From the NCBI RefSeq assembly GCF_050920415.1, contig NZ_CP169309.1: a stretch of DNA of 64,000 nt. One strand, written 5' to 3'. The stretch is from Escherichia coli. Lineage in GTDB: Bacteria; Pseudomonadota; Gammaproteobacteria; Enterobacterales; Enterobacteriaceae. Below, piece by piece: positions 39,001-45,000 of this stretch. Made by a program: the position numbers. Position 1 is the stretch's first letter. Every line of letters starts with the position of its first letter.

Positions 39001-42000
39001 ACATCACTCTCAGCCACAAAGAGGGTATAGGTGATGACGCGGCGGCGGAACATATCCGTCAACATATTCCTGAGCACGATGTTTTACTGGCCGGTTTTCC
39101 TTGTCAGCCGTTTTCTCTGGCTGGCGTATCGAAAAAGAACTCACTCGGACGAGCGCACGGTTTTGCCTGTGATACCCAGGGCACGCTGTTCTTCGATGTG
39201 GTGCGTATTATCGACGCGCGTCGCCCGGCGATTTTTGTGCTCGAAAACGTCAAAAACCTGAAAAGCCACGACCAGGGGAAAACGTTCCGTATCATCATGC
39301 AGACGTTGGACGAACTGGGCTATGACGTGGCAGATGCAGAAGATAATGGCCCGGACGATCCGAAAATCATTGACGGTAAACATTTCCTTCCGCAGCACCG
39401 TGAACGCATCGTGCTGGTGGGTTTTCGTCGCGACCTGAATCTGAAAGCCGATTTTACCCTGCGTGAGATCAGCGAATGTTTCCCTGCACAGCGAGTGACA
39501 CTGGCGCAGTTGCTGGACCCGATGGTTGAGGCGAAATATATCCTGACGCCGGTGCTGTGGAAGTACCTCTATCGTTATGCGAAAAAACATCAGGCGCGCG
39601 GTAACGGCTTCGGTTATGGAATGGTTTATCCGAACAATCCGCAAAGCGTCACGCGTACGCTTTCTGCTCGTTATTACAAAGATGGCGCGGAAATTTTAAT
39701 TGATCGCGGCTGGGATATAGCCACGGGTGAGAAAGACTTTGACGATCCGCAGAACCAGCAACACCGCCCACGTCGGTTAACGCCTCGTGAATGTGCGCGC
39801 TTAATGGGCTTTGAAGCACCAGGAGAAGCGAAATTTCGCATTCCGGTTTCGGACACTCAGGCCTATCGCCAGTTCGGTAACTCGGTGGTCGTGCCGGTCT
39901 TTGCCGCGGTGGCAAAACTGCTTGAACCAAAAATCAAACAGGCAGTGGCGTTGCGTCAGCAAGAAGCAAAACATGGCCGACGTTCACGATAAGGCTACAC
40001 GCAGCAAAAATATGCGCGCAATTGCCACGCGCGATACGGCGATTGAGAAGCGCCTCGCCAGTTTGTTAACCGGGCAGGGACTGGCGTTTCGCGTTCAGGA
40101 CGCCAGTTTGCCCGGACGCCCGGATTTTGTTCTTGATGAATATCGCTGCGTGATATTTGCCCACGGCTGCTTCTGGCACCATCATCACTGCTATCTGTTT
40201 AAAGTGCCTGCGACTCGAACCGAGTTCTGGCTGGAGAAGATAGGTAAAAATGTTGAGCGCGATCGCCGCGACATTAGCCGCTTGCAGGCGCTCGGCTGGC
40301 GCGTACTGATTGTCTGGGAGTGTGCGTTACGTGGGCGCGAGAAGCTGACGGATGAAGCGCTTAGCGAGCGTCTGGAAGAGTGGATCTGCGGCGAAGGTGC
40401 CAGCGCGCAGATCGACACGCAGGGGATTCATTTACTCGCTTGATGCGTCCTGAATAACTGGCGCAACTACGGGTTTTGCCGGGAAGAGATATTTTCCCAA
40501 CGTGACCAGTACCACCGCGAAGACAATCACGCCGAGCGCCAGCCATTCAATCTTAGACAGCGTCTCTCCGCCAAGTCCCGTACCCAGCAAGACCGCGACC
40601 ACCGGGTTAACGTAGGCGTAGCTGGTGGCGAGAGCCGGACTGACGTTGCGGATTAAATACATATAAGCGTTAATGGCGATAATCGAACCAAACAGCGCCA
40701 GATAGCCGACCGCAAGGAAGCCTGAAAGGGAAGGGAGCGCCGTCAGTTTTTCACCCGCAATCATCGACGCAATCATTAACACCACGCCAGCCGCCAGCAT
40801 CTCAATCGCACCCGCCATCATCCCTACAGGTAAGGTAATGCGCGAGCCATAAACCGAGCCAAACGCCCAGCTAATCGAGCCGATTAAAATCAGAATCGCA
40901 CCCCACGGATTGCCGCTTAAATTTCCACCGCTATTGAGCATGATGATTCCGGCAAGCCCAATGGCGATACCCACCCATTCCAGTTTGCGCGTTTTAATGC
41001 CAAACAGGCGGCTGAAGCACAGGGTAAAGAGGGGCACGGTTGCAACCACTACGGCGGCGATGCCGGAAGGAACATTTTGATGTTCGGCAACCGTTACCAT
41101 GCCATTACCGACAGCCAGCAATAACAGGCCAATCAGCGCGGCATTGAGCAGCGGACGTAGCGGGGGGAGTTTGTGTCCGCGCAGTAGCAAAAATGCCAGC
41201 AATAAAATACCGGCTGCCAGGAATCGAACGCCCGCCATCATTAACGGAGGCCAGCTTTCCACGCCAATCCGAATGACAAAATAGGTTGAGCCCCAAATGA
41301 TATACAACGCAAACAGCGCGCCAAAAAGCGGTAACAACTGGCGGAAACGCATAATCCCTCACGGTGAAAATAAAAAGGTGGTTCATAGTAAACGTGAAAA
41401 TCATTCTGCTGGCGAGAGATATAATTGCACTTGATTGTTAAAAAAATGTTGACCTATGAAGCAAGTATCAGAGCTGCCGTTTTTGCTTCATACTTACTCC
41501 CTTCAACAATAAAAATGAGAGGGAATGCTTTTGGCCGGGAGTAGTTTACTGACGTTGCTCGATGATATCGCCACACTGCTGGACGATATCTCCGTGATGG
41601 GCAAACTGGCGGCGAAGAAAACCGCCGGTGTACTAGGGGATGATTTATCGCTCAATGCACAACAAGTTTCAGGTGTGCGTGCCAACCGGGAACTTCCCGT
41701 GGTCTGGGGAGTGGCGAAAGGATCGCTGATCAATAAAGTGATTCTGGTGCCGCTGGCGCTGATCATCAGTGCATTTATCCCGTGGGCGATTACGCCTTTG
41801 TTGATGATTGGCGGCGCGTTTCTCTGCTTTGAAGGGGTAGAGAAAGTGCTGCATATGCTGGAGGCGCGTAAACACAAAGAAGATCCGGCGCAGAGTCAGC
41901 AGCGTCTGGAGAAGCTGGCGGCGCAGGATCCGCTGAAGTTTGAAAAGGACAAAATAAAAGGGGCGATTCGTACTGATTTTATTTTGTCTGCGGAAATCGT

Positions 42001-45000
42001 CGCCATCACGCTGGGGATTGTGGCAGAAGCGCCGTTGCTTAATCAGGTGCTGGTGCTTTCAGGCATCGCACTGGTAGTGACCGTGGGCGTCTACGGGCTG
42101 GTAGGGGTTATTGTTAAGATTGATGACCTGGGGTATTGGCTGGCGGAAAAATCCAGCGCTCTGATGCAGGCATTGGGTAAAGGGTTATTGATTATCGCGC
42201 CCTGGCTGATGAAAGCGTTATCGATTGTCGGCACGTTGGCGATGTTCCTCGTCGGTGGCGGGATTGTGGTTCATGGTATTGCGCCGCTGCATCACGCCAT
42301 TGAACATTTCGCCGGGCAGCAAAGTGCAGTGGTGGCGATGATATTACCGACTGTTTTAAATCTGATACTTGGTTTTATCATCGGCGGCATTGTGGTACTT
42401 GGAGTGAAAGCGGTAGCGAAAATGCGCGGTCAGGCACATTAATACTCGCACTGGCTATTATGCAAAATTCGCCATCTTCAACTAAGGTGAACAAGTTTCA
42501 CTCGAAAAAAGGAGGCGAGTATGAGCTTTATGATTAGTGAGGAAGTAACGGTTAAAGAGGGCGGCCCGCGGATGATTGTCACCGGCTATTCCAGCGGTAT
42601 GGTTGAGTGTCGTTGGTATGACGGTTATGGGGTCAAGCGGGAAGCTTTTCATGAAACCGAGCTTGTTCCGGGGGAGGGGAGTCGTCCTGCGGAAGAAGTT
42701 TGAAAGAGTATCATTAACATCAGGCCGGATCACATCCGGCCTGATGTGCCAATGCCTGCAATGAATGATTGTCGCGTCTTGTTATGTCACCATTATAAAA
42801 TTATGACTGTTTTGCGGTACGCTATCGCCAGGTTATGCCAGAATCATAAAAAAGCAGGTTGGGAGTCGTCAGGGTGCAGCACGAGACAAAAATGGAAAAC
42901 CAGAGCTGGTTGAAAAAACTTGCGCGCCGCCTGGGGCCTGGTCATGTCGTTAATCTCTGCTTTATCGTAGTGCTGCTTTTTTCCACCTTGCTCACCTGGC
43001 GTGAAGTGGTGGTTCTGGAAGATGCCTATATCTCCAGCCAGCGTAATCATCTGGAAAACGTAGCTAACGCGCTCGATAAGCATCTGCAGTATAACGTCGA
43101 CAAACTGATCTTTTTGCGTAATGGCATGCGCGAAGCTCTCGTAGCGCCACTGGATTTTACCTCTTTGCGTAATGCCGTAACGGAGTTCGAACAGCGTCGT
43201 GACGATCACGCCTGGCAAATCGAACTCAACCGACGACGCACCCTGCCAGTCAATGGCGTTTCGGATGCATTAGTCAGCGAGGGAAATCTCCTGTCTCGCG
43301 AAAATGAAAGCCTCGACAATGAAGTTACTGCTGCGTTGGAGGTTGGTTACTTGCTACGACTGGCGCACAATTCCTCGTCGATGGTCGAACAAGCTATGTA
43401 TGTCTCGCGTGCCGGATTTTACGTTTCGACGCAGCCGACCTTGTTTACGCGCAATGTACCAACGCGTTATTACGGCTATGTCACCCAACCCTGGTTTATC
43501 GGTCATTCTCAACGAGAAAATCGTCAACGCGCGGTACGTTGGTTCACCTCGCAGTCAGAACACGCCAGCAATACTGAACCTCAGGTTACCGTCAGTGTTC
43601 CGGTAGACAGTAATAACTACTGGTATGGCGTGCTGGGGATGAATATTCCTGTACGTACCATGCAACAATTTCTACAAAACGCCATCGATAAAAACCTCGA
43701 CGGTGAGTATCAGCTCTATGACAGTAAGCTGAGATTATTGACCTCTTCGAATCCTGACCATTCAACAGGGAATATTTTTGATCCTCGTGAACTCGCCTTA
43801 CTGGCGCAGGCAATGGAACATGACACGCGGGGCGGCATTCGTATGAACAGTCGCTATGTTAGCTGGGAACGGCTGGATCACTTTGACGGTGTGCTGGTGC
43901 GCGTCCATACGCTAAGCGAAGGGGTGCGCGGCGATTTCGGCAGCATCAGCATTGCATTAACCCTGCTGTGGGCGCTCTTTACCTCCATGTTACTCATCTC
44001 CTGGTATGTGATTCGCCGGATGGTCAGCAACATGTATGTTCTGCAAAGCTCGTTGCAGTGGCAGGCGTGGCACGACACCTTAACCCATTTATATAACCGT
44101 GGCGCCCTGTTCGAAAAAGCCCGTCAGCTCGCTAAATTGTGTCAGACACACCAACATCCTTTTTCTGTCATTCAGGTCGACCTTGACCATTTTAAAGCGA
44201 TTAATGACCGCTTTGGTCATCAGGCGGGCGACCGTGTGCTTTCTCATGCTGCCGGGTTAATTAGCAGTTCCTTGCGTGCTCTGGATGTTGCCGGGCGGGT
44301 CGGTGGCGAGGAATTTTGTGTGATTCTGCCAGGGGCGAATCTGGCGCAGGCCGCGGAAGTTGCAGAACGTATTCGCCTGAAGTTAAATGAAAAAGAGATG
44401 TTGATCGCCAAGAGTACGACGATACGCATTAGTGCCTCGCTGGGGGTAAGCAGCAGCGAGGAAACAGGTGATTATGATTTTGAACAACTCCAGTCACTGG
44501 CTGACCGTCGGCTTTATCTCGCTAAACAGGCAGGGCGCAATCGGGTGTTCGCGAGCGACAACGCTTAACGGGCAGAGAGAAAATGGTCCAGGCCTTCACG
44601 CCAGCCTTCCGGTCCTTCTCGCTGCGTTCGCCAGACGCGGGCCGGATCCTCATGATGCAGATGCACCCCTTGACGATTTAGCCCTTTCACAATCACCGCG
44701 TAATCCATTACCTCCAGTAAGGGCGCATCGTTTGGCCCATCGCCCAGGCCAAGTGTGGTTGGGCGTTTGCCTGACAATTGTTGATAAGTCGCGATAATCC
44801 AGTTGGCAGCCTGATCTTTTCCGGCAGAGGCATCCAGGACGTGCCAGAAGCGCGCACCCTGCATAAACTGCAAGCCCAGCTCGTTCAGACGGGTGGTAAA
44901 TTGCGCCATCCGCTCGTCACTGTCGCGCCAGATAAGCGTTACAGATGCCTCATGTAACTGCGTCAGTGCCGCCTGGCTACGGCTTAATCCCGTCCATTCG

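Follow-up and report, generated by a model that had tools for sequence, protein, structure and literature searches.

Overlapping gene ends at dcm/vsr, vsr/yedA and dgcQ/yedP in a backbone segment of the Escherichia coli chromosome

The 64,000-nucleotide (nt) stretch of Escherichia coli DNA analyzed here (RefSeq assembly GCF_050920415.1, contig NZ_CP169309.1; referred to as the window) contains a chromosomal backbone segment with the gene order yedJ-dcm-vsr-yedA-yedI-yodC-dgcQ-yedP, inverted in orientation relative to E. coli K-12, in which three pairs of neighboring genes overlap at their ends. The cytosine methyltransferase gene dcm and vsr, which encodes the endonuclease of very-short-patch (VSP) repair, overlap on the same strand, and the pairs vsr/yedA and dgcQ/yedP converge upon one another and overlap at their stop codons. 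The RefSeq annotation of K-12 MG1655 (NC_000913.3) gives the same overlap lengths (dcm/vsr 20, vsr/yedA 12 and dgcQ/yedP 4 nt), hence these features are already present in the reference annotation, and we conclude that all three are very probably ordinary, annotated features of the E. coli chromosomal backbone and nothing new. They serve as dependable landmarks for annotation checks and for strand-specific RNA data in this region, and have little significance beyond such housekeeping.

Gene ends were taken from the open reading frame (ORF) list and from direct reading of the raw sequence, and the features on which the argument is based are the following.

38574-39992, plus strand: dcm coding sequence, DNA-cytosine methyltransferase, 472 residues (ORF; Pfam PF00145, 2.5e-77, and PF18284, 4.7e-20, the Dcm N-terminal domain; RefSeq annotation)
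39990-39992, plus strand: dcm stop codon TAA (sequence)
39973-40443, plus strand: vsr coding sequence, VSP repair endonuclease, 156 residues (Pfam PF03852, 3.2e-39, residues 2-74)
39973-39992, plus strand: dcm/vsr same-strand overlap, 20 nt (sequence, annotation)
40432-41352, minus strand: yedA coding sequence, EamA-family transporter, 306 residues (Pfam PF00892, 4.9e-43; annotation)
40432-40443, both strands: vsr/yedA convergent overlap, 12 nt (sequence, annotation)
42874-44568, plus strand: dgcQ coding sequence, CHASE7-GGDEF diguanylate cyclase, 564 residues, GTG start (Pfam PF17151 and PF00990, the latter to residue 557 of 564; annotation)
44565-45380, minus strand: yedP coding sequence, HAD-family phosphatase related to mannosyl-3-phosphoglycerate phosphatase, 271 residues (Pfam PF08282 and PF05116, the latter to residue 267 of 271; annotation)
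44565-44568, both strands: dgcQ/yedP stop-stop overlap TTAA, 4 nt (sequence, annotation)

The coordinates, frames and gene identities, like the patterns of conservation and variation given below, are direct observations. The seven proteins encoded by dcm, vsr, yedA, yedI, yodC, dgcQ and yedP all contain the expected Pfam domains and are 96-100% identical to their K-12 counterparts (Dcm and Vsr 97%, DgcQ and YedP 96%), and Vsr is near-identical to the protein of PDB entry 1cw0 (E = 6e-104), a structure that corresponds to Vsr residues 2-156. The 7 kb between 38500 and 45500 are 100% identical to E. coli NZ_CP169399.1, where the RefSeq gene ends are identical, and of 5426 complete E. coli genomes, 5344 have at least 80% of this segment at a single location, the identity being mostly 95-99%. 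For more distant relatives, a species-representative genome collection was scanned with DgcQ. The scan gave 16 loci that could be used, belonging to Escherichia, Citrobacter and Salmonella, and in each of them the seven genes were placed by tblastn and each match was extended to its stop codon. The original prediction for this DNA, which covered 39973-44568, had placed the vsr start 20 bp inside dcm in another frame and the dgcQ and yedP stop codons within TTAA at 44565-44568, and both positions are exact in the sequence and in RefSeq. Its description of the two overlaps as conserved backbone features holds among the complete E. coli genomes and, for the geometry, across Escherichia and into Citrobacter and Salmonella, and comparison with the reference annotations of NZ_CP169399.1 (gene ends) and NC_000913.3 (overlap lengths) bears it out. 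The 12-nt vsr/yedA overlap lies in the same interval and was not mentioned there.

The dcm/vsr overlap and the start of vsr

The vsr ATG (39973-39975) lies 20 nt inside dcm and precedes the stop codon of dcm by 17 nt, and since (39973-38574) mod 3 = 1, vsr is read in the +1 frame of dcm. The pair has the make-up of a VSP-repair operon, with a Dcm-type C5-cytosine methyltransferase upstream, a Vsr T:G mismatch endonuclease downstream and a 20-nt +1 overlap, and it corresponds to the E. coli K-12 dcm-vsr operon (b1961-b1960) in its genes, overlap length, frame and neighbors. Among same-strand gene pairs, long overlaps are rarer than those of -4 or -1 nt, and the series -8, -11, ... -20 is the more frequent phase (PMC10666635; PMC2174442); it is to this series that dcm/vsr belongs. 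The overlap is 20 nt long in all of the related loci that carry both genes (15 of 15, from Escherichia, Citrobacter and Salmonella).

The two proteins fare differently within the shared bases. The first 20 residues of Vsr are invariant in 17 genomes, with the exception of a GTG start codon in C. sedlakii, and full Vsr activity requires the N-terminal 14 residues (PMC2715241). The substitutions that do occur in the overlap fall on third-codon positions of vsr, and the Vsr N-terminus thus stays constant, whereas the tail of Dcm varies among the relatives (HGRRSR, HGGRSR, DGGRSR, HGGRTR, SGGRSR). The Pfam methylase domain of Dcm ends at residue 448 of 472, so that the overlapped Dcm residues form a tail outside the domain. 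As judged from these alignments, the overlapped bases appear to be constrained, or “owned”, by the Vsr N-terminus with the Dcm tail as a passenger, and we propose that this tail most likely arose through extension of dcm into vsr.

The position of the vsr start can be fixed from the relatives. In E. coli no stop codon interrupts the vsr frame over the 56 codons that precede the ATG, and TTG codons occur in this frame at -17, -24 and -54. In two subspecies of Salmonella enterica, arizonae and diarizonae, the codon directly before the vsr ATG is an in-frame TAG, and in E. albertii a stop in the vsr frame lies nine codons upstream of the ATG with no alternative start in between. Because of these upstream stops, together with the invariant N-terminus and the Pfam Vsr model, which begins at residue 2 of the window protein, the start is placed at 39973.

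Linkage of vsr expression to dcm

The vsr gene is reportedly without a promoter of its own, and its translation is said to depend on the translation of dcm. The co-transcription of the two genes and the polarity of a dcm nonsense mutation on vsr are reported from K-12. Specifically, PMC12907096 places vsr and dcm in one co-transcribed operon (citing Sohail et al. 1990), and PMC4444293, citing Dar and Bhagwat 1993, states that dcm partly overlaps vsr and that Vsr activity, too, is abolished by dcm-6, a nonsense mutation at codon 45, in agreement with the original prediction that this is a known arrangement. That prediction went on to say that the arrangement couples methylation to mismatch repair. 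Linked expression stands, but a rigid coupling does not: a stop-to-start distance between -8 and +6 nt is typical of efficient termination-reinitiation (PMC10666635), the distance for dcm/vsr is -20 nt, and stationary phase is reported as the main period of VSP repair (PMC2715241), from which we infer that dcm and vsr expression is linked, although not rigidly.

The vsr start is preceded by a Shine-Dalgarno (SD)-like element that lies within dcm.

39961-39966, plus strand: vsr SD-like element inside the dcm coding sequence, AAGAAG here and AAGAGG in K-12 (sequence comparison)

Compared with the K-12 dcm-vsr operon, the window has two substitutions just upstream of the vsr ATG. The first, 39965 G>A (position -8), is synonymous in dcm and converts the vsr SD from AAGAGG to AAGAAG, and the second, 39969 C>A (position -4), results in Dcm Q466K. 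The predicted duplex of the vsr SD with the anti-SD has an energy of -0.8 kcal/mol in the window, compared with -5.8 in K-12, -3.6 in E. whittamii and -2.9 in C. amalonaticus. The window-type junction was matched in 55 of the 5426 complete E. coli genomes (~1%; 37 of them identical) and the K-12 type in 5320, where the counts come from a short-query megablast that required a 28-nt exact word and so describe allele classes rather than the presence or absence of the overlap.

We propose that ribosomes reaching the end of dcm would first cross the ribosome-binding site of vsr and then terminate a short way past it, in which case the synthesis of Vsr would be linked to that of Dcm. The form of this coupling is most likely facilitated or re-initiating translation at modest efficiency, rather than tight stop/start coupling. 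The position of the AUG 17 nt before the dcm stop, the lack of unusual structure in the RNA fold of 39920-40045 around the vsr start (z = -0.47), the variable SD and the distance of -20 nt together point to a linked, low-efficiency initiation of vsr. Such low efficiency would suit an enzyme that is reported to be mutagenic when over-produced (PMC2715241). The unmasking of the vsr start from a hairpin, which would have offered a coupling mechanism, was dropped in view of the z-score of the 39920-40045 fold. The mechanistic part of this account is weaker than the identification of the operon itself.

A different account of the coupling, possible but clearly the less probable, is classical termination-reinitiation, where a ribosome that ends at the dcm TAA would back up 17 nt and restart at the vsr AUG independently of the SD. 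This would accord with the variation in vsr SD strength, which is not conserved (-0.8 to -5.8 kcal/mol) whereas the 20-nt geometry is invariant, and there is a precedent in phage fr, whose coat and lysis genes reinitiate over a 34-nt overlap (cited in PMC10666635). However, reinitiation efficiency for native E. coli pairs drops steeply with the stop-to-start distance, and overlaps outside the range of -8 to +6 nt are typically without efficient coupling (PMC10666635). Moreover, the polarity of dcm-6 (PMC4444293) could equally be Rho-dependent transcriptional polarity. Facilitated or re-initiating translation of modest efficiency is accordingly the account that we prefer.

Convergent junctions and transcript ends

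The dgcQ gene ends with ...GAC AAC GCT TAA, with the TAA at 44566-44568, and the minus-strand stop codon of yedP is TAA, the reverse complement of TTA at 44565-44567, so the two stop codons have 44566-44567 in common. The most frequent overlap length in prokaryotes is four nucleotides, and a convergent overlap of this length can exist only as CTAA, TTAA, CTAG or TTAG (PMC2174442). The dgcQ/yedP overlap is thus a common configuration and not an anomaly, and the TTAA of the window, one of the four allowed tetramers, does not differ from the class of YTAR overlaps in any way. Where the locus goes further is in its relatives, which show all four tetramers as well as a derived 22-nt state. The overlap is 4 nt long in ten related loci in addition to the window (all Escherichia, the C. 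amalonaticus group and C. sedlakii), and among these TTAA, TTAG, CTAA and CTAG all occur, with only the outer bases varying. In four loci (two Salmonella subspecies, Citrobacter R56 and Citrobacter Awk4) it is 22 nt long; here TCA occupies the corresponding position of the alignment, yedP ends with TGA, the dgcQ TAA is replaced by CAG, and DgcQ is six codons longer. A single transition, T to C at the second position of the tetramer, links the two states. In our proposed scheme, the two outer bases of YTAR would be free to change (TAA to TAG on either strand), while a T-to-C change at the second base would keep a yedP stop (TAA to TGA) and turn the dgcQ TAA into a Gln codon. Across its relatives, dgcQ/yedP offers a textbook case of YTAR drift in which a single transition makes a 4-nt overlap into a 22-nt one. 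Two loci depart from this pattern. In Citrobacter sp. NCU1 the overlap is 17 nt and dgcQ is apparently frameshifted near its 3' end, with an unrelated C-terminal peptide, and in Citrobacter amalonaticus S646 yedP is absent downstream of dgcQ. Of the related loci, 15 carry yedP, and its stop has the same place in the alignment in every one of them.

Each stop codon at the vsr/yedA junction lies opposite a sense codon of the other gene: TAA of yedA is complementary to TTA (Leu) of vsr, and TGA of vsr to a Ser codon of yedA. This overlap is 12 nt long in Escherichia, Salmonella and two Citrobacter loci; the C. amalonaticus group and C. sedlakii have 9 nt, and in Citrobacter R56 the two genes do not overlap. 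In K-12, vsr/yedA (b1960/b1959) and dgcQ/yedP (b1956/b1955) have the same 12- and 4-nt geometry as in the window, and both are listed excludons. Specifically, yedP-dgcQ and yedA-vsr are among 165 convergent MG1655 pairs with overlapping transcripts (the “excludome”; Table 1 of PMC12288877), a list that requires the two transcripts to overlap in half or more of 58 RNA-seq data sets.

Neither convergent junction has any intergenic space, and consequently there is no room for an intrinsic terminator; in particular, the hairpin between stops, flanked by A- and T-runs, that makes up a bidirectional intrinsic terminator is absent from both. A consensus scan found no terminator-like site on the relevant strand within 150 nt downstream of either junction, and two plus-strand candidates, at 44497-44511 (inside dgcQ) and 44758-44775 (~190 nt downstream, with a poor T run), were weak and unconvincing. 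With no intrinsic terminator, each messenger RNA (mRNA) must run antisense into the neighboring gene, and we propose that it would be ended inside that gene, by Rho where this has been measured. The reported K-12 data on transcript overlap and Rho dependence are consistent with this. Supplementary file 2 of PMC7815308 lists a Rho termination region at K-12 position 2030096 (minus strand), labeled “antisense yedA”, with a Rho score of 10.3 and p = 5e-10. This site is 352 nt past the stop codon of vsr and maps to window position ~40795 on the plus strand.

40700-40900, centered at ~40795, plus strand: putative region, antisense to yedA, in which Rho would end the dcm-vsr mRNA (from K-12 colinearity; measured in K-12)

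The same study reports a second Rho region at K-12 2027287, internal to dgcQ and ~730 nt after its start, with a Rho score of 2.7 (PMC7815308), which corresponds to window position ~43604 on the plus strand. In its curated Term-seq list there is no 3' end under the nine gene names from yedP to yedJ. The mapping of transcript 3' ends, for which the overlaps had been offered as landmarks, has thus largely been done in K-12: the transcripts do overlap at the junctions, but the published data show that vsr/yedA and dgcQ/yedP are not sharp transcript ends. The neighboring dsrA and yodD genes are also convergent but, unlike vsr/yedA and dgcQ/yedP, they have a G+C-rich hairpin with A/T runs between them (45637-45663). 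This DsrA terminator hairpin is bidirectional for dsrA and yodD in K-12, where Term-seq 3' ends on both strands lie at the one common hairpin (PMC7815308).

We propose that the vsr/yedA and dgcQ/yedP overlaps are probably neutral, and that they would have arisen as by-products of stop-codon drift and genome compaction. It should be noted that two of the observations above pull in the other direction, since the fixed position of the yedP stop could reflect selection instead of neutrality, and since membership of the excludome shows overlapping transcripts, with which a regulatory role would be compatible. Taken further, these would make the convergent overlaps functional excludons, in which yedA and vsr, and likewise yedP and dgcQ, are expressed in a mutually exclusive manner through transcriptional interference and RNase III cleavage of double-stranded RNA, and for vsr this could account for a regulation separate from that of Dcm. 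We regard this as unlikely. Both pairs are indeed in the convergent excludome of MG1655 (PMC12288877), but convergent coding sequences that overlap always give overlapping transcripts, so that the listing adds little, and neither reciprocal expression nor RNase III processing is reported for either pair in PMC12288877 or PMC7815308. The dcm-vsr transcripts reach ~350 nt antisense into yedA before they are stopped by Rho, but no 3' end or Rho region is reported for the yedA or yedP transcripts inside vsr or dgcQ (PMC7815308). The sole terminator-like hairpin antisense to vsr, a minus-strand hairpin with a T run at 40032-40014 that had been considered as a terminator of yedA read-through before dcm, was rejected: it has five G-C and three G-U pairs, lies ~400 nt from the junction in the conserved KNMRAIATR coding stretch, and is unsupported by folding, as it is absent from the minimum-energy fold (z = +0.4 relative to shuffles). 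A convergent overlap is kept in nearly all relatives, but its length varies (12, 9 and 0 nt at vsr/yedA; 4, 22 and 17 nt at dgcQ/yedP), yedP is missing from one Citrobacter locus, and there is no sign of compensating change among the relatives. The report that VSP repair takes place mainly in stationary phase despite the common dcm-vsr mRNA (PMC2715241) would also fit excludon regulation. On balance, we favor drift and compaction as the origin of both convergent overlaps.

More doubtful still is the idea that Vsr output is uncoupled from Dcm in two ways, one being yedA antisense transcription across vsr and the other the near-lost vsr SD (AAGAAG) of the minority E. coli lineage to which the window belongs. 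If true, the ratio of Vsr to Dcm may be lower in this lineage and C-to-T mutations at CCWGG sites may be more frequent, and the weakened ribosome-binding site would matter only if VSP repair were measurably lowered. An origin of the overlaps in faulty annotation, through misplaced starts or stops, is effectively refuted: the open vsr frame upstream of the ATG in E. coli, with its TTG codons, would allow an earlier start, but the upstream stops in Salmonella and E. albertii, the 20 invariant Vsr residues, the Pfam match from residue 2 and the crystallized protein of residues 2-156 all argue for the annotated one, the stop codons follow from the reading frames, and the domains run almost to the C-termini (GGDEF to residue 557 of 564 in DgcQ and S6PP to residue 267 of 271 in YedP).

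Neighboring genes and other features of the window

Between yedA and dgcQ lie two further genes of the backbone segment.

41525-42442, plus strand: yedI (ORF list; Pfam DUF808)
42521-42703, plus strand: yodC (ORF list; Pfam DUF2158)

Just after yodC, at 42722-42746, there is a small perfect hairpin, CAGGCCGGATCACATCCGGCCTG, which is without a T run and resembles a REP-type element, with no Rfam match. An Rfam scan of the whole window gave no match inside 39973-44568. Outside this interval, the scan identified the DsrA small RNA at 45578-45664 (plus strand, 102.9 bits), which RefSeq leaves unannotated in the near-identical record, an RseX small RNA match at 37153-37242 (minus strand) adjoining ompC, and an EFASI RNA match at 21738-21867 (plus strand), flanked by an MFS transporter gene on one side and, on the other, by integrase fragments next to tRNA-Asn. 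The latter lies within an apparent genomic island at tRNA-Asn (~15568-22462), made up of genes for a cysteine hydrolase, hypE-like and hypF-like proteins, a HAD hydrolase and an MFS transporter, followed by two integrase pseudogene fragments. A gene of ~8 kb on the minus strand (5707-13695), annotated as an Ig-like domain-containing protein, has internal direct repeats that are ~85% identical (blastn self-matches). The record NZ_CP169399.1 has an IS2 element between zinT and msrQ (2010883-2012111), and the window is without IS2 at that site (~25730). At 58526-60386, emrE, ybcL (frameshifted) and ybcM adjoin fliE; in K-12 these three genes form part of the DLP12 prophage region at another chromosomal site. 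The last part of the window (61323-64000) is occupied by an IS200/IS605 tnpA with an adjacent TnpB-family gene and then by a group II intron, whose D1-D4 domains are matched by Rfam at 62702-62971, together with the intron's ltrA gene, which encodes a reverse transcriptase and runs off the window end.

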